Source: Squalus acanthias (Eukaryota). From it: 64,000 bases of DNA. Shown here piece after piece: positions 8,388 through 64,000 of the stretch (position 1 is the stretch's first letter; each line of letters opens with the position of its first letter). The notes beneath the pieces are model-generated. The model was given only the letters and a program-made list of their open reading frames with translations. It searched no databases and was not told the origin of the DNA. The position numbers and the translations under genes are program-made. The DNA lies in NCBI GenBank assembly GCA_030390025.1, contig CM059432.1, positions 58,406,001-58,470,000 on the forward strand. Direction: 5' to 3'.

Positions 8388-8424
8388 AGTTAACGTTTCA
8401 GGTCGATGACCTTTCATCAGAACT
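8388..8424 (-). ncRNA. Minimal type I hammerhead ribozyme in 5' pLTR
   Basis: Identical to 5205-5241. Confidence 0.85.
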
Positions 8425-8807
8425 GGGAAGAGCCGGAAATCAAATAGATTTAAGGCCAGGGTAAAGCTGGGAAAAGGGGGAGGGGATAAAGGAACAAAGG
8501 GGGAGATGAAGAGACAATCTCTGTACGCTCTTTGGTGAGGAGTTGCAGAATTCTGGGGGAGTTTTCCGGACCCTCATAATATCCGGAACGTTACAGTCTA
8601 GCTAAACTTATTAAAAGTGCTATCTGGAGGACGGTAACATCTTCAGGTTGTTCCTTTCCTTTAGGGAGAGATAGTCTGGACCTTTACACCCAATTAAGCG
8701 TCTTTAGGATTCGGCTACCTCAAACTTTAGTTGAAAGTGAACGTCTGGGGAATACGCCTGATCCGGGGTAGCCCTAAAGGGGCTAGGAATAGTAAATATC
8801 CCTTCAA

Positions 8808-17662: not shown

Positions 17663-17706
17663 TTCTTCCTCTTCTGTTTCTTCCTCTTCTGCGTCTTCCT
17701 TTCCTG

Positions 17707-17855
17707 TTTGTGGGACCTTTCTGTGCACAAATTGGCTGCCGCGTTTCCTACAATACAACAGTGACTCCACTTCAAAAGTACTTCATTGTCTGTAAAGCGC
17801 TTTGAGACGTCCAGTGGTTGCGAAAGGCGCTATATAAATGCAAGTGTTTCTTTTT
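17707..17855 (+). mobile_element. SINE 3' portion (DeuSINE/SacSINE-like)
   Basis: GTAAAGCGCTTTGAGACGTCC...GAAAGGCGCTATATAAATGCAAG. Confidence 0.7.
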
Positions 17856-24109: not shown

Positions 24110-25573
24110 TTTTTATATTCGTTCATGAGATGTGGGCATTGCTGGCAAGACCAGCATTTATTGCCCATCCCTAGTTGCCCTTGAGAAGGAGGTGGTGAGC
24201 CGCCTTCTTGAACCGCTGCAGTCTGTGTGGTGAAGGTACTCCCACAGTGCTGTTAGGGAGGGAGTTCCAGGATTTTGACCCAGCAACGATGAAGGAACGG
24301 CGATATACTTCCAAGTCAGGATAGTGTGTGACTTGGAGGGGAACTTGGAGGTGGTGGTGTTCCCAGCGTCTGCTGCCCTTGTCCTTCTAGGTGGTAGAGG
24401 TCGCGGGTTTGGAAGATGCTGCCGAAGAAGCTTGGCGAGTTGCTGCAGTGCATCTTGTAGATGGTACACACTGCAGCCATGGTACGTCAGTGGTGGAGGG
24501 AGTGAATGTTTAAGGTAATGGATGGGGTGCCAATCAAGCAGGCTACTTTGTCTTGGATGGTGTCGAGCTTCTTGAAGCTGCACTCATCCAGGCAAGTGGA
24601 GAGTATTCCATCACACTCCTGACTTGTGCTTTGTAGATGGTGGAAAGGCTTTGGGGACTCGGGAGATGAGATACTCGCCGCAGAATATCTAGCCTCTGAC
24701 CTGCTCTTGTTGTCCCAGTATTTATGTGGCTGGTCCAGTTAAGTTTCTGGTCAATGGTGACCCCCAGGATATTGATGGTAGGGGATTCAGCGATGGTTAT
24801 GCCGTTGAATATCAAGGGGCAGTGGTTAGACGCTCGCTTGTTGGAGATAGCCAACGCCTGGCGTGAATGTTACCTGCCACTTATCAGCCCAAGCCTGATG
24901 TCGTCCAGGTCTTGCTGCATGCGGGCATGGACTACTTCATTATCTGAGGAGTTGCGAATGGCACTGAATACTGTGCAGTCATCAGCGAACATCCCCATTT
25001 CTGACCTTATGATGGAGGGAAGGTCATTGATGAAGCAGCTGAAGATGGTTGGGCCTAGGACACTGCCCTGAGGAACTCCTGCAGTGATGTCCTGGGGTGG
25101 AGATGATTGACCTCCTACCACTTTCCTTTGTGCTAGGTATGATTCCAGCCACTGGAGAGTTTTCCCCCCAATTCCCATTGACTTCAGTTTTACTAGGGCT
25201 CCTTGATGCCACACTCGGTCAAATGCTGCCTTGATGTCAAGGGCAGTCTCCACAGTGACTGTGCAGTGGTCACTGCTACCAATGCTGTCATGGACAGATG
25301 CATCTGCGACAGGGAGATTGGTGAGGATGAGGTCAAGTAAGTTTTTCCTTCGTTCTCTCATCACCTGTCGCAGGCCCAGACTGGCAGCTATGTCCTTCAG
25401 GACTCGACCACCTCGGTCAGTAGTGGCGCTACCTAGCCACTCTTGGTGATGGACATTGAAGTCCACCACCCAGAGTATATTCTGTGCCCTTGCAACTCTC
25501 AGTACTTCTTCCAAACGATGGAGGAGTACTGATTCATCAGCTGAGGGAGGGCAATAGGTAGAAATTACAACCA
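24110..25573 (-). mobile_element. CR1-group LINE (second family), internally deleted with EN joined to RT near 25250
   Basis: DFNVHHQEWLGS and SDH (EN) directly joined to [20 protein letters not shown] and FADD (RT). Confidence 0.88.
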
Positions 25574-26339
25574 TTACAATTTCTGTTTAACCACATTTCC
25601 TTTCTCGCCTACCCAATTGCACATTACTTTGTTTAATAATGGCCGTAATTTTCTGGGGTCCGTGCGGGCGCGATAGGGTCGGGAGGGAAATTTGAAAAAC
25701 CTTGGAGCGAGTTGGGAACCCACCGTCATCTGGTCCCCACGTGTCTTTCCCTCGGACGCGTTTGCTAGCATGGCAGTGACCCAAACGGCAGAGGCGGGCG
25801 AGGTAATTGAGATCATTATGAGATACTTGTCAGACCCTTAAGCGTCTTTTTATCCCAACCTTTCAAATTTCCATGGATGAGCACGGGAATCACGCAGCTC
25901 GGGAACCACGTCTGTGAACCTGAGGCGGAAGTCTGGTGGCCATTGATCCAGCTCATCAGTGCACAGCATGAAAAGTACAATAAAAAGTCTCACCTGACAG
26001 CTGGCTACTTTCCTAAAGCAGATGCTGTTGCTGAGTGCATTGTCAGCACAGATTTAGCTTTCGAGAGGTTGCAAATGATTCCAGTAAAGTCGGGATCCAC
26101 TGTCACCTCATTGGTAGAACCTATCACACCATTGACAGATTGCTTCTGTCATCTCTACTTGATCTGCGAATCTATTCCATCAGCATTGGTGCCGTTTATA
26201 CTGTCTCACCTTGGTCCTCAGAAACGGACCATGATGAGCCCCAACACCAGCAGCACCAGGCGGCACACCAGCAGCACCAACAACAACACCTCCAACCTTC
26301 TCCTCAACCACCTGATGCTGCATAGGACAGAGGGCATCA

Positions 26340-32631: not shown

Positions 32632-35465
32632 CATAGAATTATAGAATCATAGAATGGTTACAGCACGGAAGAAGGCCATTCGGCCCGTCGAGCTGGCTCT
32701 CTGCAAGAGCATTTCAGCTAGTCCCACTCACCTGCCCTTTCCCCGTAGCCCTGCAAATTTTTTTCCGTCAGGTACTTTACCACTTTCCTTTTGAAAGCCA
32801 CGATTGAATCTTTCAGGCAGTGCATTTCAGATCCTAACCACTCGCTGCGTAAAAAAGTTTTTCCTCATGTCGCCATTGGTTCTTCTGTGTCCTCTGGTTC
32901 TCGACCCTTCCACCAATGGGAACAGTTTCTCTCTATCTACTCTGTCTAGACCCCTCATGATTTTGAACACCTCTATCAAATCTTCTCTCAACCTTCTCTG
33001 CTCTAAGGAGAACAACCCCAGCTTCTCCAGTCTATCCACGTAACTGAAGTTCCTCATCTCCGGAATCAATCTCGTAAATCTTTTCTGCATCCTCTCTAAG
33101 GCCTTCGCGTCTTTCCTAAAGTGCGGTGCCCAGAATTGGACACAATACTCCAGTTGAGGTCGAACCAGTGTTTTATAAAGGTTCATCATAACTTCCTTGC
33201 CTTTGTACTCTATGCTTCTATTTATAAAGCCCAGGATCTCGTATGTTTTTTTAACCGCTTTCTCAACCTGCCCTGCCACCTTCAATGATTTGTGCACATT
33301 TACCCCCAGGTCTCTCTGTTCATGCACCCCCTACAGGATTGTACCCTTTAGTTTATATTGCCTCTCCTCGTTCTTTCTACCAAAATGTATCACTTCGCAC
33401 TTTTCTGCATTAAATTTCATCTGCCACGTTTCCGCCCATTCCACCAGCCTGTCTATGTCCTCTTGAAGTCTATCACTATCCTCCTCACTGTTCACTATAC
33501 TTCCAAGTTTTGTGTCATCTGCAAATTTTGAAATTGTGCCCTATACACCCAAGTCTAAATCATTAATATATATCAAGAAAAGCAGTGGTCCTAGAACCGA
33601 CCCCTGGGGAACCACACTGTGTACCTTCCTCCAGTCCGATAAACAACCGTTCACCACTACTCTCTGTTTCCTGTCACTTAGCCAATTTGCTGCCACTGTC
33701 CCTTTTATTCCATGGGCTTCAAATTTGCTGGCAAGCCTATTATGTAGCATTTTAATTAGCGCACAGTGACTATTAATTTTGACCTGAATTATCGTTTCTA
33801 AACACTTCCCCACTACCAAGGTTAAACTGCCTGGCCTGTAGTTGCTGAGTTTATGTTTACACCCTTTTTTGAACAAGGGTGTACCATTTGCAATTCTTCA
33901 GTCCTCTGGCACCAGCCCCGTATCCAAGGAGGATTAGAAGATTATGGCTAGTACCTCTGCAATTTCCACCTTTACTTCCCTCAGCATCCTAGGATGCATC
34001 CCTTCCGGTCCTGGTGACTTATCTATGTTAAGTACAGCCAGCCTTTCTAGTACCTCCTCTTTATCAGTTTTTAGCCCACCCGGTATCTCAACTATCTCCT
34101 CTTTCACTATGACCTTGGCAGCATCTTCTTCCTTGGTAAAGACAGATGCAAAATATCCATTTAGTACCTCAGCCATGTCCTCTGCCTCCATGCGTAGGTC
34201 TCCTTTTTGGTCCCTAATCAGCCCCACCTCTCCTCTTAGTACCCATTTACAATTTATATGCCTATAGAAGACTTTTGGATTACCTTTTATTTTAGCTGCC
34301 AATCTATTCTCATACTCTCTCTTTGCTCGTCTTATTTCCTTTTTCACTTCCCTTCTGAACTTTCTATATTCAGCCTGGTTCGCATGTGTATTCTCAATCT
34401 GACATCTGTCATACGCCCCCTTTTCCTGCTTCATCTTACTCTCTATCTCTTTCATCATCCAGGGAGCTCTGGTGTTAGTTGCCCTACCTTTCTTCCTAGT
34501 GGGAATGTACCTCGACTCTACCTGAACCATCTCCTCTTTAAAGGCAGCCAATTGTTCAATTACAGTTTTGCCTGCCAATCTTTGATTCCAATTTACCCGG
34601 GCCAGATCCATTCTCAACCCACTGAAATTGGCCTTCCTCCAATTAAATATTTTTACTCTAGATTGCTCCCTGTCCTTTTCCATAGCTAATCTAAACCTTA
34701 TGATACTGTGACCACTGTTCCATAAATATCCACCTTCTGATATTTGCTCCACTTGACCCACCTCATTCCCCAGAACCAGATCCACCAATACCTCCTTCCT
34801 TCTTGGACTGGAAATGTACTGATGAAGAAAGTTCCCCTGAACACACTTCAGAAATTCTTCCCCCTCTCTGCCCTTTACACTATTACTATCCCAGTCTATA
34901 TTAGGATAGTTGAAGTCCCCCATTATCACTACTCTATAGTTCTTGCATCTCTCGTTAATTTCCCTGAAAATTTGCTCCTCTATATCCTTCCCACTAGTTG
35001 GCAGCCTATAGAATACACCTTGTAGTGTAATGGCACCTCTATTGTTTCTCAACTCTAACCAAATAGATTCTGTCCTTGACCCCTCCAGGACATCCTCTCT
35101 CTCCAGCACTGTAATATTCTCCTTAACCAATACTGCCACCCCACCTCCTTTCTTTCCTTCCCTATCTTTCCTGAACACCTTATATCCAGGAATATTTAAA
35201 ACCCAATCCAGCCCTTTTTTGAGCCAGGTCTCCGTTATCACCACGACATCATATTCCCATGTGTCTATTTGCGCCTGCAGCTCACCGACCTTATTTACCA
35301 CACTTCGTGCATTCACATACATGCTCTGCAAACCTATCTTAGACCTTCTTGCATTCTCTCTTAGTCTGACCCCACCTAATACCGTACTATTTCTTACTCT
35401 AGTGCTATGTGTCTCTCCCAATCCTTTATGCACCTTGTTTCTCCTTGCTAATGCTACATCCTGCT
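32632..35465 (-). mobile_element. CR1 LINE, nearly complete ORF2 (APE endonuclease + RT) with deletions and frameshifts
   Basis: YVNARSVVNK, ITETWL, GDFNYP, RT fragments and tail repeats at 32632-32655. Confidence 0.93.
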
Positions 35466-36570
35466 GCCCACAGGAGGTGTTGATGGTGTCCATAAAGAGC
35501 TCAGTAACTTGTAGCTTTGGGGATATTGAATAAAAAATCATAGTGTGGCAAAATCTTAATTTTCTTGTATTTCCTTGCCTTTTTTTTGCCTGATCTACAT
35601 CTTAAATTGATAGAGACTAGCCATTGGGCCAGTGATGAATGTAATAAGTGTATGTATCCCCCTGATTCCAGAAATATTGGCTTTCTGTATTGAGAATAAT
35701 TTTTTAAATGATAATAGTTGCCAATCTCTTTGCTAACTCAAACATCCTTCAGCATTTTTATCAACACAAACACAGAGATTTCACCTTTTGCTTTTTTTCC
35801 TGTTCTTTATCAATTTATAATGTTTGTTAAACATCTGAACTTTAGCCTGTATAAATTATTTTCTTGGTCCTCCTTCCTGTCTTAATTTATGAGCAATATT
35901 AGCAGGCCAGGAAACCTAGCTTCTGACATATATTTTACACTTCGCTAATCATGCACATTACCCTGCCATGAAGCTGAGTCCTTCTGTACAGAGAGTTCCT
36001 CATTATAACTTTATTAAAATTCATTGTCTGCAATGTGACAGTGAAAATCAGGCTAGACCAGCTGGCGTTGGCGTCAATAACTGTTAATGGATTCTAACAC
36101 TTGCATGTCTGCCTGCATCTAATGGTTCGCTTTACTGTCAGTCAATAGCTTTGGATTTATGCCAAATCTAGGGCAATTCAGACTTAATTTAATCTGCAAC
36201 TTTAATGGAGCTTTGAATAATACAGTACTCACATTGTACACTTATTTGTTTACTCGTGTAACATCGTCAGCAATCACGTTGCATAAATGGACAGTTGGTT
36301 TAGCTGTTTCAGTGAAGTGTTTCGTTCATAGAATTTTAAATTACATTAGTGTGTTAAGGTCATTGTACGTGTAAATTGAAATCAAAACTGATTACTACAG
36401 TTTGACTTATCTCACTACCGAATGTTTACAAGTGGCTAGTGTCAAGAGAAACAAGTCACAATTTCAAAAGGTACAAGAATTTTTTTCAGTATGAGGGTAG
36501 TCAGAGGAGAGGGGAGATTTCAAAAGGATACAAACAGGCCAAAAGCTGAGGATCAACATAAAATAGTTGA

Positions 36571-38140: not shown

Positions 38141-39504
38141 TGTAGAATTCGCAATATATCGCGATTTTATAAATAAGGAGAAAACACATAGTTTCGTTCA
38201 AACAGCTTTATTTCAGCAGAATGCTGTCAGGTTTTCAAAGTGGACACAAGCAGCCTGTAAAATGGCCGCCGAGCATCGTGGCAGAAGCTTCCAGAATACA
38301 GTGGGCAGACAAGATGGCGTTCGAATAAACATTTCAGTATCAGATTGGTTAATACGCAGCAAACACTGATAAAGACAGGATGCAACCTGTCTGCATTCGA
38401 CACAATAGCAAAGATATAAGTGCTGGAATCATTTTCCATGCACAAGTAAGGACCATTGTAATGGGCAATCGAAGGCCCATCCAGACACAGCAATACACAT
38501 CAGTATTCGAGAAGGCCCCAAACCCAGTCAGGGAGACTCCTAGCCGGCTCGACAATGGGGAAAACATTAACGGCTACTTGGCCAGTTTAAGGTGCTACCG
38601 AAACCCATTAAAGGAAAGAATCGCCCCATGCTGGGAGTTTTGTGCACCAGCATTTCACAAAGGACAAACATTAAGATTTGAGCGGGAGATAAGGGAACAC
38701 AGCACTATAACTATAGTGAACAAATGTCCATCAAGGGCTTATTCTCTGGATTCGACTTATATCTCTGCTGACTCTTGACTCGGGCTGGACTCTTGACTGA
38801 TTGATCTCGCTGATGACTGCTGAACTTTTATTCTCCTATTCTGATCCTCGGGTATCGCTCTGCTGGACGAGCAGCCTTCTGTTTTTCTCTGGACTCTGTT
38901 GACTACGAGACGAGACGAGAAGAAGAGGAGAAGAATCCACGTACCGCCACGGTCAGTAAACCCCGACCGCGCCCGAAAATACAAGAAAGAACTGCAGCGA
39001 AACGAGCCGAGTGCCTTACTTTAAAATTCTCCGAGTTATCACGAGTGGTGAGCATGAGTCTCGATCCTACATATCTAGATTAGTGTAGGTATTAATAGGG
39101 GAGGGTGGTTTTAAGTTTTAAGGATAACTGTAATGTGTGCCCCCATCTATGATGTGTCGTTCGTTCCTCGTTTCCCTGAAATTAGTTACATAACTGCGTG
39201 TAAGATTGTACTGTCATTAATCTGTGCTTATGACATGTATTTCGTAATCTTAAATAATATGCAATAAAGATTTTCCATTTCGTACCATTCAACCGGGTCT
39301 ACCTGAGTTTTCTCTCCATTACTGCTCTCGCATCTAAGTCCAGTGTCAGAACCGTAAGGGCGAGTGGGTCGAACCACTCACAGGTGTCTAGTGCTCCCAG
39401 ACTGGCTGGAGACCAGAACAGGCAACAAGGCCTAACCTCGCACTAGCATCCAGGCTGCACAGAGCCACACGAATCTCACAGGCTGAGAGACGAAAACCCT
39501 TACA
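38141..39504 (+). repeat. 5' LTR (AATAAA at 39263)
   Basis: Direct repeat of 45524-46887. Confidence 0.97.
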
Positions 39505-39508
39505 GAAA

Positions 39509-41317
39509 ATGGCGACCGCGGCAGGACACTGGCAGCGAGAGGGTAGTGTGTTAGACTTTGGTGTGAATGTACGAAATGTTATGCAGGAAAAGATAGCAGA
39601 TTATGTGTTCGGAAAGGTAAATCTAACTAAGAAATGGATAAGTGACTTGTTAGCGGATAAGTGTCCACTAGAGGCAGCCGAGAGGTGGACAGATAGTAAG
39701 GAACATAAAAAGACAGTCGAGAAAGCAGTCTGGTTAATGTGTTACAAAAGGCAGGTCCAGATTTCAAACCAGGTCATTACAGCGCAAACAGCTCGGATCA
39801 GGCATTTAGAGGAGGAAATGGATGAGAAGGTCTCTGGAGGGGAGTTGCTCATTAGGAATTTAAGTGCGCTGCACCGAGAACGCCAGGAAATCACCAGTCA
39901 CCACAAAGCAAAAATAGATTACCTCGAGTGTCAGGTCACTGAGGCAAAGTTAAGTGAGGGCAGACTAAAGGAACGATGTGCCCGCCAAGCTGCCCAAATA
40001 AGAACCCAGGAAGAGAGCTTAACGGGGGTTAGGGCGGCATATAAGATGGCCCTTGAGGATAAATTTCAGGGGGCCGATCATAGCGCCTGCCAACAGGAGA
40101 TAGAGCACCTCAATAGGGCCGTGAACAAAGCGCACGGCATGGTGTGCCTTATCAGTCCGTCAGCACACCAGCCGCTAGTAAATGAGGAGTTTCAGAAATC
40201 CCCACCCAATAAAGCAAAGGAAGTATTAGCCACTACGCCCTCCGCGCCACCCAGCTATTCGGAAACCTGGGTAAGGGAGGAAGTAGTAGAAGAAACAGAA
40301 GAGCCCACTGAGGAAGAAGTGGAAAAGGGACCGTTGTGTCCAGTTACGGGTATAAAAAGGGGCCCAAACAGAAACGGTGGGGAGGAACCAGGGGTTCTCC
40401 TCAACCAGCTTGTGTTGCCTCACAGCTCACACCAGCTGAGAGTTATGATAAATCACGTACGGAAGCTGACCGAGTCAGACGACCCTTCCGTACACTTTAG
40501 AGAAGTTGAGCAAACCGCAGCCATTAACGGCTGCGATGATGGGGAAACAGCAAAAATGCTGTTATTCTCATTGGGTAGTTCGATCCTTCAGTGTCTCTCG
40601 GACGAGAGCAAGAAGGGAACCAAGACCTATGAGGCATTAAGAAATGAGGTCCTAGAAGTATTGGGGACGGACGATGAAGGTCCGTTTGTTAGAGTGGGAC
40701 AGACAGTGCAGATGGAGGGAGAACCCCCGAAGGTTTTCGCCGACAGGCTGTGGCCAGTATATCAGCGCAGCTGTCCAGGTGTGCCAGAGCGCGACGCTGT
40801 GGAAGGCATCGGTTTAACTCATTGGCTCAGGTGTATAGTAGCCAACAGTTTGCCAGCCGTCAGAGAGCAGGCAAAAGCGTGGTTTGATCCCACTGACCCC
40901 AACATTACGGAGGAGTCGGTCTTAAATCGACTCACGGTAGGATACCGTAATATCAGGGGTATGGGAACACGTCCCCTTAAGGGAAAAGTACATGAGGTAC
41001 GACCCGCAGCCCCGGCTCAAAAGGAGTGGCATCAGGAGGGTAACCGCGCCCCGCAGGCAAGTAATGCTTGTTACGGGTGTGGGAGGACAGGGCACTGGCG
41101 CAAGAACTGCAGGAACCCTTGGAAGGATTCCAGGGATAAAAATCCCGCAGCCCGAGCCCAGATGCCTGTCTCTGTTAGGGAAGCTAGTGCACCCACCCCT
41201 CCCGACGACCTCGAAACAGTGTTGGGAGCCATGCGCAACTTCATGAGTGCGCATGGAAAAGTGGCGGTTGCTACCGGCCCCGTAGGTGCCACAGGCCCGT
41301 CTAACAATACCCAATGA
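39509..41317 (+). CDS. gag: Gag-like protein (N-terminal coiled coil, capsid-like region, CCHC zinc knuckle), 602 aa
   Basis: CYGCGRTGHWRKNC knuckle (41069-41110), MHR-like QMEGEPPKVFADRL, and position directly after the LTR/PBS. Confidence 0.9.
   Translation: MATAAGHWQREGSVLDFGVNVRNVMQEKIADYVFGKVNLTKKWISDLLADKCPLEAAERWTDSKEHKKTVEKAVWLMCYKRQVQISNQVITAQTARIRHLEEEMDEKVSGGELLIRNLSALHRERQEITSHHKAKIDYLECQVTEAKLSEGRLKERCARQAAQIRTQEESLTGVRAAYKMALEDKFQGADHSACQQEIEHLNRAVNKAHGMVCLISPSAHQPLVNEEFQKSPPNKAKEVLATTPSAPPSYSETWVREEVVEETEEPTEEEVEKGPLCPVTGIKRGPNRNGGEEPGVLLNQLVLPHSSHQLRVMINHVRKLTESDDPSVHFREVEQTAAINGCDDGETAKMLLFSLGSSILQCLSDESKKGTKTYEALRNEVLEVLGTDDEGPFVRVGQTVQMEGEPPKVFADRLWPVYQRSCPGVPERDAVEGIGLTHWLRCIVANSLPAVREQAKAWFDPTDPNITEESVLNRLTVGYRNIRGMGTRPLKGKVHEVRPAAPAQKEWHQEGNRAPQASNACYGCGRTGHWRKNCRNPWKDSRDKNPAARAQMPVSVREASAPTPPDDLETVLGAMRNFMSAHGKVAVATGPVGATGPSNNTQ
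39510..39527 (+). promoter_or_regulatory. Primer binding site, complementary to tRNA-Arg(TCG) 3' end
   Basis: TGGCGACCGCGGCAGGAC is the reverse complement of GTCCTGCCGCGGTCG+CCA, the vertebrate tRNA-Arg-TCG 3' end as I recall it. It lies 5 nt after the LTR. Confidence 0.85.
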
Positions 41318-42424
41318 CTAGAGCCCACGCAGCCTGCCTACCTGTGTCCTTTTAAAAGACACGCACAGGAGGGGGTCTCCTGTGAGGAGGCCAGGTTAAA
41401 AGAGCAGGCCTTGCGGGAGGAGAACGCCCGCTTAATAGGGAAAATAGATGGGCTAGAAGGGCAGCTTAGAGAGCAGGCCCTGCGGGAGGAGAACGCCCGC
41501 TTAATGGGAAAGTTAGACGTGCTCAGGCTAGAAGGGCAGCTTAGAGAAATAAAAGCAGCCTACCAGGTAGCCAGAAGCAGGGATTTAAACCAGTGCAAAC
41601 TGTACAAGCCAGGTGCACAAGGGAAAACCACAGGGGCAAACCCTGCGAGTGGGGACTCGCAGCCCCAGGTAGGACCACAAGGCACACAGGCAGGCAGAGC
41701 AGCTTGCATCAGGGAAGGAGGCATCCTGGAAAATTGTGAAGCATTTTTGTGGGGTTGGGAGTCAGATGAGGGAGAGTTCCAGGAACTCGAGTCAGATGAG
41801 GATAGTGATGAGGACGAGTGGGAATCGGAGGACACAAGGGTCGCCCCCGATTCAGGTATAGGGAGGACAGGGGCTGCAGATAGAGATCCACACAGGGTGG
41901 ACACCCAGGCTGAAGGTCCCGAACACAGGAGGGAGGAGCTAGGGGAGGCGGAGCCAGCCACTGTGGGACCACAGGGCGGGACGGCGGAAACCTCAGAGCC
42001 CGAGCCGCCCGCCTTGAACGTCCTGCCCTCGAGGGAGGTAGGGACTGCGAGTGGAGGTTCGCCTGCTGGGCCGAGCAGGGCGGTGCCACAAGCTGCAGGT
42101 CCCGAGGTCAGGGAGGCGGAGTCAGGGGAGACGGAGCCAGCGACTGTGGTGGGACCACAGGTCGTCCCGGTGGAAGTCTCGGAACCCGGTCCGTTGGTCC
42201 TGGGATTCCTGCCCCCGACAACTCCTCGTAGGTCAGGTCGGGCACCCCAGCCCAGGAAGATGTGGTCATGTCCCCAGACTGCCCCAAGGCGCAGGCTCAA
42301 GGTTAAGGCAGCCCAGGAAGGGCCCAGTCCCATCGCAGCAGCAACAGGCTGCGGCAGATCAAAGGAAGGGGTCAGTGCCCTCCCACCGTCGGGAAGAGCT
42401 CGCAGCAGCCTTCTCAGAATTTAA
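41318..42424 (+). CDS. 368 aa ORF in frame with gag after TGA-CTAG; coiled-coil repeat plus acidic/Pro-rich region; no PR/RT/RH/IN motifs
   Basis: The frame is open from 41318 to TAA at 42422-42424, in the same frame as gag. Confidence 0.65.
   Translation, partial: LEPTQPAYLCPFKRHAQEGVSCEEARLKEQALREENARLIGKIDGLEGQLREQALREENARLMGKLDVLRLEGQLREIKAAYQVARSRDLNQCKLYKPGAQGKTTGANPASGDSQPQVGPQGTQAGRAACIREGGILENCEAFLWGWESDEGEFQELESDEDSDEDEWESEDTRVAPDSGIGRTGAADRDPHRVDTQAEGPEHRREELGEAEPATVGPQGGTAETSEPEPPALNVLPSREVGTASGGSPAGPSRAVPQAAGPEVREAESGETEPATVVGPQVVPVEVSEPGPLVLGFLPPTTPRRSGRAPQPRKMWSCPQTAPRRRLKVKAAQEGPSPIAAATGCGRSKEGVSALPPSGRARSSLLRI
41399..41548 (+). repeat. In-frame tandem duplication (~69/75 nt) encoding EQALREENARL...LEGQLR twice
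   Basis: Direct reading. Confidence 0.9.
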
Positions 42425-42724
42425 AGGGGCCGCCCTGGGAACGGGCGGCGCTGTACAGTAATAAGTTTAGGATAAGTTTCTAAGTTTATAGTTTAAGGTT
42501 AAGAATAAGTTTATAGTTTTAAATCAGGTTAAGTTTGTAGTTTAATTTTAACAGAAAATGGTAAAATGATGGGAGCTTTAGAGATAGGTTTAGTTAAGGT
42601 TTATCCAGCGAACATTGAAGTTTACGTGAGGCGAGGTCAGGGGACCCGCTCACCCTTCACAAAAGCCAGAGACTCTTGCGAGGCTGGCTACCTCATTCTA
42701 TCTGATCACAGGAACCAAGGAAGG

Positions 42725-45076
42725 ATGGAACGAATTCTAGTATTGCTCGCGGCAATCGGATGTGGATTGGCCTATCGAGGCCGTACCAAGGATGTCGTGG
42801 TGTTTGGATGCTCCGGGGACACGGCCCCCATCGCGGTGGATGGGACCGGAAGACGGGAGGCTGAGGAGACCACCACCTATTTCCACAAGGGAAGGTGGCC
42901 AGGATGGCTGGGAACGAACTCAACGGAGTATTCCAGCACATCAGGGTTTGCCTACCAAGAGACTTCTTTACTGTGCCCCAAAGTAAGGATCATCGCACCC
43001 AGGATCAGCGTCACCGTCGGCAAACGGATTTGTTTGACTTGTAGTGGGAATGTCCCATTGAGCCGATGGTGGTGGCTGCGAAAGCTGAGCAAAAACATGA
43101 GGAACTCTTCGGTCGAGTGGGAACGACTGGGTAATAATACCCATCGGACAATTACGGGGACAAACGGACAAGTGAGAGTCTGTTGGGACAAATGGTGGGT
43201 ACCGGATGAGGGAATTTATGTATGTATGTGGGGGTCAAAGTACGCTTGCCCCAAAGGCATCTCCATATTTTTCATTCATCAATGGCAGGATAACGGACAG
43301 GGGATGAGGTGGGATGCGAGCACCAGGGGGTGCGGAGCCCCATACTCTTCGATCCCGGTAAATACCACTGAGCTCATTACGCGCCCACGCAAAGCCCCGC
43401 CCACGATTCCGGTGGTTCTAGCTGAAGAGGAAGGGTGCCCTAAAACTAGTAAGGGACCCGGGAATGGTTTGGTACTGGTCCCCACAGACCAGATACTATT
43501 TCAGGGGGTACATTACGCGGTGGCCTCGGTGATTTTAAATCTCACCGAGGTGCGGTTACCAGAGTGGTGCCCCAAAAAGACGGAACAGTTATATCAGGTC
43601 CTGTTGACCAAGATGTTCAGACAATTTTACGAATTCGATTTCGCGGAAATTGATAAAACAAGTCTGTACACCGCACCACATGAAGTTTTGGATCAAGTAG
43701 GGAGGCAAAGAAGGGGTGTAGTGAACGACGTGTTCACTGCTTTTAACACGGGTACATCTGTGGTCAACGCTCTAGACAGTGTGGAGCTGCAGACCCAGAT
43801 TAATGGTTTAAAGACGCAATTAAAAGACATTCTAACAGATGAGAATAAAGTGGTTGGGTCAGGTTTACACGAGGACCAAGCCATGACTCTCCATTTAAAA
43901 GAAATTATAGCAGAGTTAGAGAAACATGCAAAGACGGTAAATGCCCTGATTAGGGAAGATCGGAATGCATCCGATCAAGCTGCGCAGAACGAGGTGTGCG
44001 TGATTTACGGGGCGTGGTTACTGGGCGAGGGCCGCAGTAATTTGGAGGATTTAAAACAAGGTTTGGTCCCGTCCTGGATAAGTAACAAACACCTGCGGGC
44101 GCTCCACCCTTTTCAGAACGCATTAAGCCCGTGCCAGCTCAGGCTAGCTTCAGAAGCTTACCCAGTCCCCGTGGACTGCGGACGATCAAACCATACTATC
44201 ATGGGTATAGTATTACGTATGCCGGTTTTGGGCGACACAGCAAAGCCCGCCCCGGTGTATCGGGTAGAGAACATTGGTGTCATTCAGGGGGGAGCCCACA
44301 TTCGCTATGCAGCGGTTCCACCCTACGTCATCCGCTGGGAGCAAACGATGACAGGTACAGATCTCTCTGGTTGTCGTGGCAGGGGAGCACACATAATACT
44401 GTGTCCCCAGCACTTGAATGCCTTTTTAACACCACAGTGCGGGTTCAGAACGGCTGGCGCCAAGTCCATGAATTGCACCATGGAGGCAATGGCACAAGAT
44501 CATGTGCCTCCGCAGGTAGCATACATCGGGGGTGGAACATATTGTGTTACCACTGCAGCGCAACACTACCAGCATGGAAACCGTAGCCGGTGTCCGGTGA
44601 GTGACAGCAGTTTCTGTTTCAAACCCAGGGCGGAAGTTCAAGTAGCACAACGGCGAATTGTCCCAATCCCTGAACCATCCACTGTTCATCTAACAGTAAA
44701 AGAGAATTTCACCGACTTGCAGCGATTCGTCGCGCATTTCGGATACCTCATTCCCCCTCTCCCTGAACACCTCACCAAGCTTTTAAAAGCCGTCGCGGTG
44801 TCACAGAAACATTTTTACACATTAGAACAGAAAACTGTCGAAATAGGAACAGACATTCTGGATATAGTAATTCCACCGTGGTGGAATCTGTTCACCAATA
44901 TTGAAGTGCCTTCATGGATCAGAATAGCCTCCCACATTTTAGTCGTATGCCAAGTTTTTATTGTAGTGTACCTATTGATCGTACATTGTAAAAGAGGCAA
45001 ACGCCTCACCAAGCATGAAAACACAGGAGAGTGGCGAGAACGTTACGTGCGCGTGCACGATGAAAGCACCGTGTAA
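42725..45076 (+). CDS. env: Envelope / class I fusion-type glycoprotein, 783 aa from the signal-peptide ATG (ORF open from 42566)
   Basis: Signal peptide MERILVLLAAIGCGLA, Ig-like segment, furin site RQRR (43703-43714) followed by a heptad region, Cys-rich region, TM HILVVCQVFIVVYLLIV and a basic tail. Confidence 0.88.
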   Translation: MERILVLLAAIGCGLAYRGRTKDVVVFGCSGDTAPIAVDGTGRREAEETTTYFHKGRWPGWLGTNSTEYSSTSGFAYQETSLLCPKVRIIAPRISVTVGKRICLTCSGNVPLSRWWWLRKLSKNMRNSSVEWERLGNNTHRTITGTNGQVRVCWDKWWVPDEGIYVCMWGSKYACPKGISIFFIHQWQDNGQGMRWDASTRGCGAPYSSIPVNTTELITRPRKAPPTIPVVLAEEEGCPKTSKGPGNGLVLVPTDQILFQGVHYAVASVILNLTEVRLPEWCPKKTEQLYQVLLTKMFRQFYEFDFAEIDKTSLYTAPHEVLDQVGRQRRGVVNDVFTAFNTGTSVVNALDSVELQTQINGLKTQLKDILTDENKVVGSGLHEDQAMTLHLKEIIAELEKHAKTVNALIREDRNASDQAAQNEVCVIYGAWLLGEGRSNLEDLKQGLVPSWISNKHLRALHPFQNALSPCQLRLASEAYPVPVDCGRSNHTIMGIVLRMPVLGDTAKPAPVYRVENIGVIQGGAHIRYAAVPPYVIRWEQTMTGTDLSGCRGRGAHIILCPQHLNAFLTPQCGFRTAGAKSMNCTMEAMAQDHVPPQVAYIGGGTYCVTTAAQHYQHGNRSRCPVSDSSFCFKPRAEVQVAQRRIVPIPEPSTVHLTVKENFTDLQRFVAHFGYLIPPLPEHLTKLLKAVAVSQKHFYTLEQKTVEIGTDILDIVIPPWWNLFTNIEVPSWIRIASHILVVCQVFIVVYLLIVHCKRGKRLTKHENTGEWRERYVRVHDESTV

Positions 45077-45523
45077 TCGGAAAATGGCGTCACTCCCGCT
45101 CGCCACGTGCGCCGCGGAGGTTTGTACTCGATCATGATTTTCAAAGACTGTAAATACGTTTGGAACTCGACATGTGTTAAGAGTTGGTGTTGATTATTTT
45201 GGTGATGGTGTTGTAGTTAAAAATGATTGTTTGGTTTTGGTTTTGTTTTTCCTTTCCCTAAATAAAAATATGAATATACAGGTGATACGAGAGGCATCGG
45301 CCTGGTTACGCCTGGAAGGAAAACAAGTGGTGTAAGTTTAAAGGCAAATAATGCCTACGGTGCTATAAAATGTAATTTTCTTGGGAAATAAGGACGACGC
45401 AAAGACCCTAGATAGTTTAAGTTATGGGATTAAATTTTCTGGATCTGGAGAAATCGAGATAATATTGCTCACCACAATATTTTTGATACGATAAGCGGAG
45501 TTATTCGCATCAACAGGAGGTAC

Positions 45524-46887
45524 TGTAGAATTCGCAATATATCGCGATTTTATAAATAAGGAGAAAACACATAGTTTCGTTCAAACAGCTTTATTTCAGC
45601 AGAATGCTGTCAGGTTTTCAAAGTGGACACAAGCAGCCTGTAAAATGGCCGCCGAGCATCGTGGCAGAAGCTTCCAGAATACAGTGGGCAGACAAGATGG
45701 CGTTCGAATAAACATTTCAGTATCAGATTGGTTAATACGCAGCAAACACTGATAAAGACAGGATGCAACCTGTCTGCATTCGACACAATAGCAAAGATAT
45801 AAGTGCTGGAATCATTTTCCATGCACAAGTAAGGACCATTGTAATGGGCAATCGAAGGCCCATCCAGACACAGCAATACACATCAGTATTCGAGAAGGCC
45901 CCAAACCCAGTCAGGGAGACTCCTAGCCGGCTCGACAATGGGGAAAACATTAACGGCTACTTGGCCAGTTTAAGGTGCTACCGAAACCCATTAAAGGAAA
46001 GAATCGCCCCATGCTGGGAGTTTTGTGCACTAGCATTTCACAAAGGACAAACATTAAGATTTGAGCGGGAGATAAGGGAACACAGCACTATAACTATAGT
46101 GAACAAATGTCCATCAAGGGCTTATTCTCTGGATTCGACTTATATCTCTGCTGACTTTTGACTCGGGCTGGACTCTTGACTGATTGATCTCGCTGATGAC
46201 TGCTGAACTTTTATTCTCCTATTCTGATCCTCGGGTATCGCTCTGCTGGACGAGCAGCCTTCTGTTTTTCTCTGGACTCTGTTGACTACGAGACGAGACG
46301 AGAAGAAGAGGAGAAGAATCCACGTACCGCCACGGTCAGTAAACCCCGACCGCGCCCGAAAATACAAGAAAGAACTGCAGCGAAACGAGCCGAGTGCCTT
46401 ACTTTAAAATTCTCCGAGTTATCACGAGTGGTGAGCATGAGTCTCGATCCTACATATCTAGATTAGTGTAGGTATTAATAGGGGAGGGTGGTTTTAAGTT
46501 TTAAGGATAACTGTAATGTGTGCCCCCATCTATGATGTGTCGTTCGTTCCTCGTTTCCCTGAAATTAGTTACATAACTGCGTGTAAGATTGTACTGTCAT
46601 TAATCTGTGCTTATGACATGTATTTCGTAATCTTAAATAATATGCAATAAAGATTTTCCATTTCGTACCATTCAACCGGGTCTACCTGAGTTTTCTCTCC
46701 ATTACTGCTCTCGCATCTAAGTCCAGTGTCAGAACCGTAAGGGCGAGTGGGTCGAACCACTCACAGGTGTCTAGTGCTCCCAGACTGGCTGGAGACCAGA
46801 ACAGGCAACAAGGCCTAACCTCGCACTAGCATCCAGGCTGCACAGAGCCACACGAATCTCACAGGCTGAGAGACGAAAACCCTTACA
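45524..46887 (+). repeat. 3' LTR, preceded by short purine tract AACAGGAGG
   Basis: Direct repeat of 38141-39504. Confidence 0.97.
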
Positions 46888-55738: not shown

Positions 55739-56301
55739 TCTGTTCACGTTGTCTTTCTGCAAGTTGTTTATTTTATTTACTGAAGATGTTGGGGTAAAAA
55801 TTCACTTGGTTGCGCCTCCCGTTAGCGCCTTAAGAGGGCGCTAATGGGGCATTAAGCCGCTAACGCCCGGGCGCAGCGATGTTTGAGCCGCTCGAGAACT
55901 TAACTTGAGATTGTGCGGCGGCGCTAAAACTTACCGCTGCGACCACCTGCGCGCGCAGATTGTGACGTCATTCCATGGTGCAACGCCCTTGGGGCGCCCC
56001 GGAGCGGAAATTGAGTGGCGCCCCCTGCCTTACCGCCTGGCGCTTCCAACGACCGGAAGACTGGAACGCTATCAATCGGTGTGGGGCTGGGGGGGGCGCT
56101 ATTTAAAGGGGGCCTCTTCCTGTCTTTTTCTGTGGTCGACATTTATGCACCACTCGTTCTGAGAGAGAGAGAGAGATTCGGAGAGAGAGAGAGAGAGACT
56201 TCTACATTGACTCAACGCTTTGTGAGGTAGTTTTGCCTATTCATCCTAACTTTGTTGCTACTTTAGTTGCTGTACCTCATGACTTTTCTGGCAAAGAGAA
56301 T

Positions 56302-57462
56302 ATGGGGGCTGCAATGATTGGGGGCGTCGTCCTGCTCCAGCTGAATCGGAGGATACCGAGACGCAGACAGAGAGTGGCAATGATGGCCAGACGGAGGAGG
56401 GCCATCAGGCGCTTGTACAGGAGAGCTTACCCTCCCAGGGTATATCGTGAACAGCTCTCCTACATCCATATGTCCGAGGAGCTGTGTTTGCGAAGGCTGC
56501 GATTCAGCAAGGAGGTGGTCACTGAGCTCTGCCACCTGCTGCAGCCAGATCTGCAGCCTCAGCTGAGGTCCAGGACGTCTCTGTCGGTAGCAGTGAAGGT
56601 CACAGTGGCTTTGAACTTCTACGCCACTGGCTCATTCCAAGCTGCTGTTGGGGACCTCGCCAATATCTCCCAGTTTGCGGTGCATCGCTGCATCCGGCAG
56701 GTCACCAATGCCCTCTTCAGAAGGAGACGAGACTTCATCTCTTTCCCTATGACCCCAGACAAGCAGTGTGACCGTGCTCTGGGCTTTGCGAGGGTAGCGG
56801 GCTTCCCCATGGTGCAGGGCGCCATTGACTGCACGCATGTGGCTTTGCGTGCTCCGCGAGAGAATGCAGAGGAATTCAGGAACAGAAAGGGGTTCCATTC
56901 CTTGAATGTGCAGTTGGTCTGTGACCACAGACAGGTGATACTCGCTGTCAATGCCCACTATCCGGGCAGCTGCCACGATGCTTTCATCCTGCACCAGACT
57001 ACTGTGGCAGAAGTTTTCGAGGCACCGCATCAGCCAGTTGGTTGGCTTCTGGGGGACAAGGGGTACGCATTGAGCACCTGGCTGATGACACCGCTCCGTA
57101 CGCCAAACACCCCTGCTGAGCTGCGGTACAATGAAAGCCATCAAGCAACCAGGAACATTATTGAGCGCACAATCGGCGTGCTGAAACAACGGTTCCGCTG
57201 TCTGGACCATTCCGGAGGAGCCCTGCAGTACTCGCCTGAGCAAGTTTCGAACTTCGTAGTCGTGTGCTGCATGTTGCACAACATGGCAATCCTCAGGACC
57301 CAGCCAATGCCACCAGGCCTTGTAGCACCACCAGAGGAGGAGGAGGAAGAGGAGGAAGAGGACGAGGACGATGATCATCAGCAGCACCAAGGCAGGAGGG
57401 CGGCCCACAATGGTCAAACTGCAAGGGCCGTCCGTCAACGACTAATAGCAAGCCGCTTCTAG
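56302..57462 (+). CDS. Harbinger DDE transposase, 386 aa
   Basis: ATG at 56302. Catalytic motifs GAIDCTH, LLGDKGY and NIIERTIG are all intact. Confidence 0.95.
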   Translation: MGAAMIGGVVLLQLNRRIPRRRQRVAMMARRRRAIRRLYRRAYPPRVYREQLSYIHMSEELCLRRLRFSKEVVTELCHLLQPDLQPQLRSRTSLSVAVKVTVALNFYATGSFQAAVGDLANISQFAVHRCIRQVTNALFRRRRDFISFPMTPDKQCDRALGFARVAGFPMVQGAIDCTHVALRAPRENAEEFRNRKGFHSLNVQLVCDHRQVILAVNAHYPGSCHDAFILHQTTVAEVFEAPHQPVGWLLGDKGYALSTWLMTPLRTPNTPAELRYNESHQATRNIIERTIGVLKQRFRCLDHSGGALQYSPEQVSNFVVVCCMLHNMAILRTQPMPPGLVAPPEEEEEEEEEDEDDDHQQHQGRRAAHNGQTARAVRQRLIASRF

Positions 57463-57756
57463 GGCCCCTGCCATTGCTACAAACACTAATCAACCCAGCA
57501 CGCAACCCCTAAGCCGGCCAAGGCACCAATAATTCCAACCACCAGCCATGTATATTTTGAATACAGAAACTTATTTATTTTACAAACTCTGTGTGTGTCA
57601 ATTCCTCATGACAAACTCATAGAAATAAACACAAAAAAACAGTCAATAACATAACTGGTTCTCACAACCTGGAGATAATGTCCAAAACACTAAACAAAAG
57701 TTGGACCATGAACCTCGGCCTTTAATAAAAAAATGACCAGCATTTTGTCACACCTC

Positions 57757-59525
57757 CTACGTTTTGCCCTTCGAGGGTGATCTCCTTCCCTTGCGCACTT
57801 CCCCCCTTCTAACCCTACTGCTCCTCCGTAATGGGACCTCAGTGGCTGCAGCAAGGCTGGTGGAAGGCTGCTGCTCGTCAGACCCTGACACTGCAGATGC
57901 CCGTGAAGGACGGCTTCGACCACTTCTGGGCCTGGAGGGCCCGGCTGCAGACTGCACCAACTCTGCATGGGCGGCAGCAGTCTGTCCTACAGGCGGTGGC
58001 AAGTGCAGTGGAGAAGTGACAGTGTTGGCAGCAGGAATGCTGTCATCGTGAGAGAGGCCAGCAACTCCCTGCTCGCCCAACACACTGGCACTCCCACGGG
58101 GCAGCACTTCAGCATCCGGAGCAATCTGCCGGAGAACAGATTGCTGGCCTGCTGTGGCGCGGTGACAGCCCCGGGGACATGTGCACGAACCATCGAGGTT
58201 GGCAGCAGTCTGTGCTCGCGTGGCCTCCATCTGAGTCTGTATGAGAGCAGTCAGAGGTGGGATCACGGCAGCCAGTGACTGAATTGCAGCACTAAGCGTT
58301 AGTGTGGCATCCGCCTGTGCTACAGCGAAGTGCTCCACACTCCTTGCCAGTGACTCAATGCATTCGGGCACCCTTCCCACTGCACCCATGAGCTCAGTGT
58401 GCATGCCCACCGCCTGGGTATTCATTTCTGCAATCAGCCGCTCCTCCTCTGCGTCCATTGCAGTAGGAGTGTCTGGCATACTCTCCCTCTGGGGAGAAGG
58501 CCCCCGTTCTTCCCTACCCCCCCCATGGTGTTGCTGCAGCCCGCTGGGTCCTGGAGCTTCACCATCATCAGCCCCTTCCCCCCTGCTCCCCTCCGGGGAA
58601 GGCGTGTTCCCAGTGTGGGCATGGGCTTCCTCGGGAGAGGATGGCACTGATGCTCTGGCTTCCTCTTCCTCCTCAGCTGCAGCATCACTCCCAGTGGCAG
58701 CTTCAGGGCCCGTCTCCTCAGCTGGTGAATCACCATCTGAAAGCAGGGAGGTACAAGAGTGGCTTTAGCGTGAGGACAGGGTGGCAGTAAGGGAGGAATA
58801 AGTGCAGCGAGTTAGCAAGTTGGATTGAAAGTGTCAAAGGCTGGTGTTGTGAGGGACAAGTGGAAGGACAGAGGACAAAAAGGTGATGACCTTACCATTG
58901 CTGTCCACAACGGGGTCGGCGTCTCCAGTGGCGACGGGACCGATCACCCGGCTTGCCACAATCCTGTGGACGCGCTCCTCCAGATCGCTGAGGGGTTGCA
59001 GCTGAAGCCGCCCTCCACCTGTCCGTTGCTGCTGTCTCCTATTATGAGCCAGCTTAGCCTGCAAGAAAAAGGACAGCATCTGAGTAAATATACAGCCATG
59101 GTCTTGCCTGATGTGCCTCCCATAGGTGAATAGCCCTTACTGTATGCAAAGTGTGGAATGTGTGTGTGTGTTTGATGAAAGGGCCATAGGTGTTGGATGA
59201 GTGTTGTGCATTGGGGTTTTAAGACCCTCTGGCCATAGAGTGAGGTTGAGATGGAGGGATGGAGAGGTATTGAGAAAAAGCCACTCACCCTGACGACCCG
59301 AGTGAGGTCGTTGAACTTTTTGCGGCATTGAGTATGGGTCCTGGGCACCATGCTCCTGGAGGAGACGCTCTGAGCCACCTCCCTCCACACTCTTCTGAAC
59401 TCGCGTGGCAAAGGCCACCTGCCACTCTCAGGGAACAGCATACATCGTCTGCGCTCCACTGCATCAACCAGAGCATCCAAGGCCCGCTCGGTGAAGCGAT
59501 GAGCGCGTTCTCTCACCCTCTCCAT
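57757..59525 (-). CDS. Harbinger Myb/SANT-like protein, 3 exons (59525-59289, 59058-58896, 58736-57757), 459 aa
   Basis: Canonical GT-AG introns, phases 0 and 1; the exons join into a 1380 nt open frame. Confidence 0.9.
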
Positions 59526-60364
59526 GCTTGGCAGCAAAATGGATTCACAGGTCTCTCCAGGCCGAGATTCAAGGCTGCAATGAGCAGGGTGTGGCTGGGG
59601 AGCAAGTGGCCCCCCCCGCTTTAAGAAGTGTCCGGCGCTAGTGTGTCTGTGTTCCCTCGCTAACTGGCAGCAGCTGCGCTGCGCTCGCGCGCTGAGTTAG
59701 CGCCTCACTCCTTGGCCTTTGCGCCTTAAGACAGGTGTGCAGCGCCTGCTTTAGCGCTCCACTCACCTCCCGGGGCGGTAAAAGTGAAGTTTCCTGTCAG
59801 TGCCGATAATTAGCGCCAGGCGCTAATATTTGCGTCCGGACGATATTTGCGCCCCAAATGGGGCGCGACCTAATTTCTACCCCGTTGTTCTGTAGCAGCA
59901 AGACCCTGGAACACAGTGTACATAGATATGTAGGTCTCTTCCTGGAATGTTATATTCTCACATTGTGCTGGAGCTCACTACATTTATTTGGAATAATCAC
60001 TTTTTTGTCTTGCTACACCTAAGTTAATATAGTTATATTTATATCTCATTAATCTTATTCTGGCTTTTTGGTAACAAGTCATCTGACTTCTTTGAAGTGA
60101 TATCAAAGATTTGTGGTTGGTTTTGACATAGAAAGGCCTGTCTAAAAGTTAAGCTGAAAATCACTTCCATGCACCAATTGGCACTAAAGCTTATTTTTCT
60201 ATTGTACTTAGCTCTCTTCTGTTCATGTTAGCCAAAGTATGGATAAGAAGTCTTTTGGTCGCAGCTTATGGCAGCATCATCAATGGGTTTGTGAAGGTTC
60301 CCTCTACTAAGTATTTCCAGCAAAATAGTAAAGATGGAATAATGTTTACAGCTTCACTGGAAAC

Positions 60365-61149: not shown

Positions 61150-61990
61150 TCACAAATACATTTATGATATTGCTACAAGTTGTGCTCAGAGGAATTCTTG
61201 CTCTATGAAGTAAATGCAACTTATTTTCTACTAGTTTGTTACTTCCTAAGTCCTGCACCCAGTCCTTAAGAAGATGCACCTACAATGATGTCACCTTTGC
61301 ATTATAATTTACTGACAGCACAGGAAACTCTTGATGAGTTTACATGCCCTCTCTTGAGATTTGCCCGCCCCATCCCCCACACCCCCAAAAATACCTCTGT
61401 AATTGTTTTTGACAAATCTGTAAGATTTGAAAAGAATATTCCAATTTGGTTAGTTGTGCCTTGGAATTGTCTAACTTCACTGGCATTCAAAGGTGATTCC
61501 GTTGTTGGAATAGTTTGCATTACTTCTAGGTCCACCTTGATAACTTCCTACTCCCAGATTCCTCTGGCATTACTATTAGTGCTAAGAGATTTTTGTTATG
61601 TTCAGCCTTTGCTTGCCATCAGATAATACTATTGAGACTTTTTCTCTGAAAATGTTCAGGTGCAGATGAAATTCTAAATGGGAGCATTTTGAAGTAATCA
61701 CATACAAATTGTACAGTAAACATAATTAATAAGGCTGAACCTGTTGCTAGCAGCACTTGCCAGAAAACAGAATTTACATCTAATTTTGAGAAGATATTTG
61801 CACTTGAAAGCTGCTCTAATGTTTGATTATTTATGTGTTGTGGGTGAGTTTTTTCCATAAGCGCCCTCACTCAGTTGGTGAGGTCAAGACAATTGTGAAC
61901 CATTTTATTTAGGTACCACCACCATTTCTGTGCACCACTTTTTCAGTCCCTCTATTCTTTCCAATACTCCCACATGCTCCAAACAGGCCA
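61150..61990 (-). pseudogene. Old Ty3/Gypsy-type pol (RT) remnant
   Basis: FSKLDVNSVFWQV, LPFRISSAPEHFQR and EVRQFQG motifs. Confidence 0.75.
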
Positions 61991-64000
61991 GTGTGGCATA
62001 AGAATAAAACAAAAAGGGTGACTCAACCGTGGCTAACAAGGGAAATTAGGGATAGCATAAGATCCAAGGAGAGGGCATATAAATTGGCCAGAAAAAGCAG
62101 TAACCCTGAGGATTGGGAGCAGTTTAGGATTCAACAAAGGAGGACAAATGGATTAATTAAGAAGGGGAAAATAGAATATGAAAGTAAGCTTGCAGGGAAC
62201 ATAAAAACTGACTGTAAGAGCTTTTATAGATATGTGAAGAGAAAAAGATTAGTGGAATCAAGTGTAGGTCCCTTGCAGTCAGAAGCGGGGGAAGTTATAA
62301 TGGGGAACAAAGAAATGGCAGACCAATTAAATGCATATTTTGGTTCTGTCTTCGCAAAGGAGGACACAAATAACCTCACAGAGATGTTGGAGAACATAGG
62401 GTCTGATGAAAGGGAGGAACTGAAAGAAATCAGTATTTGCAGGGAAATGGTGTTAGGGAAATTGACGGGATTGAAGGCCGATAAATCCCCAGGGCCTGAT
62501 AATCTACATCCTAGGGTACTTAAGGAAGTGGCCCTAGAAATAGTAGATGCATTGCTGATCATCTTCCAACATTTGATGGAATCTGGAACCGTACCCATGG
62601 ATTGGAGGGTAGCTAATGTTACCCCACTATTCAAAAAGGGTGGTAGAGAGAAAGCGGGGAATTACAGACCGGTAAACCTGACATCGGTAGTGGGGAAAAT
62701 GCTAGAGTCCATTATAAAGGATGTAATAGCTGAGCACTTGAAAAACAGTGACAGGATTGGACAAAGTCAACATGGATTTACAAAAGGTAAATCGTGCTTG
62801 ACTAATCTACTGGAATTTTTTGAGGATGTAACTGGGAAAATAGATAAGGGAGAACCAGTAGATGTGGTGTATTTGGACTTTCAAAAGGCATTCGATAAGG
62901 TCCCGCATAAGAGATTAGCGTGTAAAGTTAAGGCACATGGGATTGGGGGCAAGGTATTGACTTGGATAGAGAACTGGTTGACGGACAGAAAGCAGAGAGT
63001 AGGAATTAATGGGTCTTTTTCCGAGTGGCAGGCAGTGACTAGTGGGGTACCGCAGGGATCGGTCCTTGGACCCCAGCTATTCACAATATACATTAATGAT
63101 CTAGATAAGGGAACTAAATGTAATATCTCCAAGTTTGCAGATGACACAAAGCTGGGTGGGCGTGTGTGCTGCGAGGAGGATACCAAGAAACTCCAGGATG
63201 ATTTGGACAGGTTGGGTGAGTGGGCAGAAGCATGGCAGATGCAATATAACATGGATAAATGCGAGGTTATCCACTTTGGTGTCAAAAACAGAAAGGCAGA
63301 CTATTATCTGAATGGCAATAGATTGGGAGAAGGGGAAGTGCAACGAGACCTGGGTGTCCTTGTGCACCAGTCGCTGAAGGTAAGCATGCAGGTGCAGCAG
63401 GCGGTGAAGAAGGCAAATGGTATGTTGGCCTTCATAGCGAAAGGATTTGAGTATAGGAACAGGGATGTCCTGCTGCAGTTGTACAGGGCCTTGGTGAGAC
63501 CACACCTTGAGTACTGTGTGCAGTTTTGGTTGCCTTATCTGAGGAAGGATGTTCTTGCCATGGAAGGAGTTCAGCGAAGATTCACAAGGCTGATACCTGG
63601 GATGGCAGGAATGACATATGAGGAGAGATTGGGTCGATTGGGCTTATACTCGCTGGAGTATAGAAGAATGAGAGGGGATCTCATCGAAACATATAAAATT
63701 CTGACAGGTCTGGACAAACTAGATGCAGGAAGAATGTTCCCGATGGTCAGAGAGTCCAGAACCAGGGGTCATAATCTAAGGATAAGGGGTAAGCCATTTA
63801 GGACAGAAATGAGGAAGAATTTCTTCACCCAGAGAGTGGTGAACCTGTGGAATTCTCTACCACAGAAGGTAGTTGAGGCCAAGTCATTAAATATATTCAA
63901 GAATGAGTTAGATATATTTCTTAAAGCTAAAGGTATCAAGGGATATGGGGAGAAGGCAGGTACAGGGTACTGAGTTTGGATGATCAGCCATGATCTCATC
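61991..64000 (+). mobile_element. 5'-truncated CR1 LINE with uninterrupted 660-codon RT frame (to 63973); runs off window
   Basis: All RT motifs present ([28 protein letters not shown]). Confidence 0.95.

Follow-up and report, generated by a model that had tools for sequence, protein, structure and literature searches.

The stretch of the Squalus acanthias genome analysed here (64,000 nucleotides of contig CM059432.1, positions 58,406,001 to 58,470,000; hereafter the window) holds on its plus strand a retrovirus-like element with long terminal repeats (LTRs) at 38141-46887, whose envelope gene, env, lies in an open frame of 847 codons (42533-45076). Read from the ATG at 42725, the Env protein has 783 amino acids and is arranged as a signal-like start, a head, a linker, an F2-like segment, an RQRR site, an F1-like region and a transmembrane (TM) helix. 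The hydrophobic start, a likely signal peptide, spans 42725..42784; a candidate splice acceptor AG was read by eye at 42710-42711. The head is composed of an N-terminal segment with Cys29 (residues 21-80, 42785..42964), modelled mostly at low confidence, and a likely immunoglobulin (Ig)-fold domain (residues 81-189, 42965..43291) with cysteines 84, 103, 106, 153, 167 and 175 and sequons N127 and N137. A linker (43292..43435) that includes Cys203 and is partly rich in Pro and Thr leads to the F2-like segment (43436..43714), which ends in the furin-type RQRR (43703-43714, residues 327-330). The F1-like ectodomain (43715..44923) would contain, judging from ESM Atlas features, a fusion peptide, a coiled coil and a Cys-rich region, and is followed by the TM helix (about residues 734-756; hydropathy peak of 2.56 at residue 734), a short tail of about 28 residues and the stop (44924..45076).

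A preliminary description of the window had placed an Ig-like domain of V/I-set type at 42980..43240, and its motifs lie where it located them: ISVTVGKRICLTC is present, with Cys106 of CLTC at 43040; the Trp cluster WWW corresponds to residues 115-117 (43067-43075); and DEGIYVC starts at 43205, its Cys167 (43223) lying 61 residues after Cys106. The likely domain is slightly wider than the limits given there, at about 42965-43291. The V/I-set pattern of a B-strand Cys, a C-strand Trp and an F-strand DxGxYxC at a spacing of 55-75 residues is present, and together with a G-strand-like GISIFF these elements are placed as in Ig domains. A looser signature (C, W 8-16 residues on, [DE]x[GA]xYxC 55-80 residues on) arose in 13 of 20,000 shuffled versions of residues 21-235 and in 17 of 20,000 of the ectodomain, figures that overstate its significance since the rule was written knowing the match; in the six frames of the window, the Env segment is the one stop-free segment that carries it. 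In an alignment of 26 relatives, C103, C106 and W117 are conserved in every row, C153 in all 25 rows that cover it and C167 in 24 of 25, while position 161 is usually Glu rather than Asp (19 of 25). The extra Cys pair of the domain is invariant among relatives and fits the strand geometry of the Ig fold. In our proposed scheme, Cys106-Cys167 would form the canonical B-F disulfide and Cys103-Cys153 a B-E bond on the outer face, with Cys84-Cys175 and Cys29-Cys203 as the further presumed pairings.

Pfam, PDB, language-model and fold comparisons each give weak results that favour an Ig domain, with five methods leaning the same way; the best PDB matches are JAM-A, FCRL5, CRTAM and VEGFR3 (E 0.19-0.49). 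None of the Ig signals is individually significant, and the domain model has a predicted local distance difference test (pLDDT) score of 50. The Pfam check did return an Ig_3 match, but at 15.6 bits against a curated 30; the search for Ig superfamily members gave none above the cut-off (best E 7.4e-4); and a Foldseek comparison with PDB and BFVD, a check of the kind that the preliminary description had proposed, retrieved nothing at E<=0.001. A single-sequence fold was unusable (pLDDT 34), and profile A1 returned only a His-tag artefact from PDB because long unrelated rows had inflated the profile. Taken as a whole, residues 81-189 probably fold as an Ig-type domain; the claim is likely but unproven, every signal being sub-threshold and the model weak.

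The domain is under purifying selection: against six older-family loci, pN is 0.20-0.25 and pS 0.69-0.83. In the same comparison F1 is more conserved than the domain, while residues 21-80 and the linker are less so. Within the young family to which this copy belongs, the domain carries 11 amino-acid and 16 silent variants, compared with 26 and 105 in F1 (p 0.007, in a post hoc test), and this raised ratio hints at surface pressure. The domain is also basic (16 K/R, 6 D/E); the charge seems weaker by eye in sister families, and was not used as evidence.

The order of Env bears out the proposal that the domain sits ahead of a fusogen, and the rest of the protein looks, from its sequence features, F-like (class Ib). 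The class Ib set of signal peptide, basic cleavage site, fusion peptide, coiled coil and TM helix is present, with a putative fusion peptide that is only moderately hydrophobic (0.88). ESM Atlas features point to the Gypsy/Baculo_F env of errantiviruses and baculovirus F (0.95) and to the paramyxovirus Fusion_gly (0.93), and one relative matches Baculo_F at E 0.0011. Hidden Markov model (HMM) searches lend F homology no support: neither this Env nor its profile has an F match in Pfam or PDB, and the F-core profile retrieved only coiled coils from PDB. A gamma-type Env was considered and rejected: a CxxC is found at 103 but CX6CC is lacking.

Searching 1.84 billion representatives yielded 49 proteins at E<=0.001, whose named members come from sharks, coelacanth and frogs. 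The nearest named proteins are from a skate and a sawshark. The CP..GP..GL start of the F2-like segment is common to relatives with and without a head, and resembles the N-termini of Loki Envs. Close relatives have the same head, as the preliminary description suggested checking, but distant ones have other heads or none. The head of P0035 is V-set-like (Pfam E 0.0029; 8 of its 10 weak PDB matches belong to the Ig superfamily) and that of P0014 Ig-like (E 0.015, and so named in UniRef), while those of P0013, P0020, P0024 and P0049 have no Pfam match; overall, four of seven distant heads match no Pfam family and one matches a non-Ig family. In the headless P0037 and P0048 the core directly follows the signal peptide. 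Homology between this head and the distant ones was not detected, either by HMM (scores between -1.8 and 6.5 bits against 11 targets, with 1-6 of 200 shuffles attaining the best of them) or by hhalign (probability 0.3-11.7% for all four compared). A core tree of 17 rows (midpoint root) pairs P0035, which has a head, with the headless P0037 as its sister (97/96); P0052, P0068, P0042, P0016, L080, L087 and L092 were omitted because they were too short or did not have the start motif. Because these two are sisters while heads vary, the head was likely gained or lost within the family, as far as the sequences indicate, and the varied or missing heads of distant relatives suggest a swappable slot. 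The shark genome also holds a third Env family (L081-L092), about 30% identical in the core, with a different Cys-rich head in L083, L087 and L092 and most of the head missing from the other copies.

The preliminary description doubted that an Ig domain is a known feature of such Envs, which needs correcting: IgV-like receptor-binding domains (RBDs) occur in gamma-type Envs and a SIRP-derived IgV domain in an alpha-like Env (10.1101/2024.03.17.585361). In the same work, IgV-like N-terminal RBDs are described as established for MLV, FeLV and EnvPb(1), and as modelled for ZFERV. The SIRP-like IgV RBD and gamma-type RBD-C share with the present domain an N-terminal IgV-type placement on a retroviral Env, the canonical B-F cysteines with an extra disulfide, and a proposed receptor-binding role. 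They differ in sitting on gamma or alpha fusogens with a recognisable donor, whereas here the fusogen is F-like and without CX6CC and the donor is untraceable, and in lacking the 60-residue segment that here precedes the Ig domain. An F scaffold that bears its own receptor module is likewise known from two class Ib fusogens, foamy virus Env and coronavirus spike (PMC11468914), although the foamy virus RBD is inserted and of novel fold, while the module described here lies at the N-terminus and is likely Ig. CrocERV31, which captured nectin-3 (PMC4299795), is also an endogenous retrovirus (ERV) carrying Ig-superfamily sequence; there, however, a whole recent host mRNA replaces env, while here a single old domain lies in a working Env frame. 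Our literature search, which left out most subscription journals, found no paper on an Ig head of an F-like retroviral Env, and neither immunoglobulin nor Ig-like appears as a word in the main text of PMC7947760, PMC13524379 or PMC13709493. Each ingredient thus has a precedent, whereas neither their combination nor the variable slot seems to have been described.

On balance, we lean towards a reading in which residues 81-189 form a disulfide-stapled Ig-type beta-sandwich that serves as the attachment head of an F-like (class Ib) fusion protein of an endogenous retrovirus that is likely akin to snakehead retrovirus (SnRV). Mechanistically, furin would cleave the Env precursor at RQRR, and the head would stay on the N-terminal piece, which, by analogy with F proteins, would remain linked to F1 through a disulfide bond (probably Cys282-Cys425). 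The Ig head would then bind a target-cell surface molecule, with fusion to follow. Paramyxoviruses obtain attachment from a separate protein, in place of which the Ig head would supply this function; the reading frames and the element survey revealed no other glycoprotein gene in the element. By analogy with other Envs, we infer a receptor-binding role for the domain. It is less probable, though worth weighing, that the domain is Ig-like but acts as a structural stalk or scaffold, attachment being provided by residues 21-80, the F core or general glycan binding. The Ig region is indeed better conserved between families (56-66% identical, against 45-55% for residues 21-80 and 40-49% for the linker), headless relatives exist, and the model has the N-terminal stretch packed into the sandwich. 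Against a scaffold role stand the excess of amino-acid over silent variants relative to F1 in the young family (11/16 versus 26/105) and the receptor-binding role of the N-terminal Ig domains in other Envs. Of the two roles offered by the preliminary description, receptor binding and immune decoy, no result singles out the latter, and a head acting mainly as a decoy or modulator on virions and infected cells seems improbable. The head is the outermost part of the chain and viral Ig-domain proteins are often decoys or modulators, but a mimic should stay near its host model, none of which is detectable, and this head forms part of the sole entry protein.

The searches did not demonstrate the suggested capture of a host gene segment: no host Ig protein is found among the 49 matches or the 4 head-search matches, and the search for a donor in the genome scored ERV copies only (150 of 150). 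The domain was nevertheless most likely taken long ago from a host protein of the Ig superfamily, and would since have diverged so far that its donor can no longer be traced. We consider it rather unlikely that the segment does not derive from a host Ig gene at all, being instead either a virus-borne beta-sandwich with no more than a likeness to Ig, or an Ig-like module of ancient viral origin that has moved from one Env to another. This would agree with the missing host match in protein searches, the sub-threshold scores throughout, the lectins that tie in VIA and the atypical Trp- and Cys-rich E strand; even for the MLV-type RBD-C, a host origin is unknown according to Hotzel (10.1101/2024.03.17.585361). 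It is harder to reconcile with the Ig spacing of B-Cys, C-Trp, DxGxYxC and GISIFF, with the five methods that lean to Ig and with the more typical V-set head of P0035.

The element family is likely an SnRV-like retrovirus, judging from its reverse transcriptase (RT) and layout. By eye, its RT has the motifs LPQGF, QYVDD and LDISNGFWS, while the four Loki RT rows compared show PF/PFG, I/VYVDD and MDL or ADI; LDISNGFWS occurs twice in the examined part of the PMC7947760 supplement, both times in SnRV, and CPFG in none of 89 RT relatives. The best named RT relatives (52-53%) are from frogs and coelacanth, and the best PDB scores are to MLV (240 bits), foamy virus (222) and Ty3 (146). LDISNGFWS, LPQGF..SP.IFHQ and QYVDD are shared with SnRV and with class III and clade Huo ERVs (PMC12193657, PMC8922424). 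The gag-pol stop readthrough layout is shared with SnRV, which is listed among readthrough viruses (PMC13517186), and SnRV-like ERVs have been reported in elephant shark (PMC4422223). The likeness concerns RT motifs and layout, with the SnRV Env outside the comparison apart from its tail (136 residues against about 28 here); SnRV also uses a UAG stop and this family UGA. Membership of the lokiretroviruses was rejected, by visual motif comparison only, as the RT motifs are not Loki-like. The Env core is nonetheless Loki-like: lokiretrovirus Env (PMC7947760) is F-like with a signal peptide, basic cleavage site, coiled coil and TM helix, and a similar motif, GP..G(I/L)V, opens the core in all four Loki Envs compared (of about 23). 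Those four are headless, the core beginning right after the signal peptide, unlike here. Tether and RNase H in Pol are also common to both (RT_RNaseH at 470-602 and RNase_H at 650-792 in a pol-bearing sibling), a trait shared with all retroviruses. The five cartilaginous-fish genomes consulted in the table of that paper bear no asterisk.

The 5' LTR (38141..39504; 1364 bp, TG...CA) differs by 2 mismatches from the 3' LTR (45524..46887), and CCAG flanks the element on both sides, likely as a 4-bp target-site duplication. The primer-binding site (39510..39527) corresponds to tRNA-Arg(TCG): its reverse-complement pattern has 433 exact matches in the genome and 0 in the control, and ARAGORN assigns tRNA-Arg(tcg) at all four loci scanned. 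Elsewhere in the genome, at about 38.99-41.88 Mb of C26 (L094-L096), long tandem arrays of a 1.6-kb unit carry tRNA-Arg(TCG) and tRNA-Ser(GCT) genes. The gag frame (39509..41317) encodes a CCHC knuckle (zf-CCHC, E 0.0058) and ends in TGA-CTA-G (41315-41321), identical in all 20 sibling loci and likely, from its sequence, a readthrough stop. This type of context is known from alphaviruses. The retroviral UGA contexts listed in PMC13517186 differ from it. The earliest ATG in the gag frame lies 5 bases past the LTR, where it overlaps the primer-binding site (39509-39527) and leaves no leader; translation may really begin at a later Met, or the layout may be unusual.

As the 20 siblings make clear, most of pol is missing from this copy (remnant at 41318..42424), being replaced by about 230 nucleotides that encode a repeated coiled-coil-like stretch (41350-41582). 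YVDD-containing pol is found in 11 of the siblings, and the one scanned has protease, RT, tether, RNase H and integrase; the other 9 form a pol-less subfamily in which the frame stays open past the gag stop and env is retained. In most siblings (L031-L050) the match to the window LTR is confined to positions 1-194 and to the part beyond about 885, the middle part of this copy (with L040 and L049) being different. The element family is young and many-copy: among the best candidates scored, all 57 Env matches in the genome are 98-100% identical and 52 are stop-free, and all 150 scored matches to the domain are at least 95% identical. Older families are 48-62% identical in the head. Contigs of four sequencing runs of uncertain type cover the stretch, with no bearing on transcription. 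Other parts of the window contain a Harbinger-like transposon (56107-59696; DDE_Tnp_4 nuclease on the plus and a Myb-like frame on the minus strand), a second such copy (66-3737) and non-LTR retrotransposon fragments with RT/endonuclease matches (5512-8573, 15889-17829, 24870-25586, 33934-35601 and 61913-63973), one of them surrounded by repeats that are 99% identical (5104-5333 and 8287-8516).

A retroviral Env with an Ig head and an F-like core brings together two lines, that of F scaffolds with a receptor module and that of the Ig heads of gamma and alpha Envs, and suggests that loki- and spumaviruses are not the sole retroviral lineages with F-like Envs. It also suggests that screens requiring a standard TM motif miss or misfile such elements. 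Closely related proteins with and without a head allow asking how attachment joined fusion. As a tentative extension, SnRV-like retroviruses of sharks, skates, coelacanth and frogs might possess an F-like fusogen with an N-terminal cassette slot that received host Ig-superfamily domains on several independent occasions or was left empty. The slot would hold the Cys/Trp-rich head here, a CD2/CEACAM-like V-set in P0035 and others in P0014 and the frog Envs, and would be empty in P0037 and P0048. If true, it would constitute a natural series showing a bare F protein gaining its own receptor-binding head.
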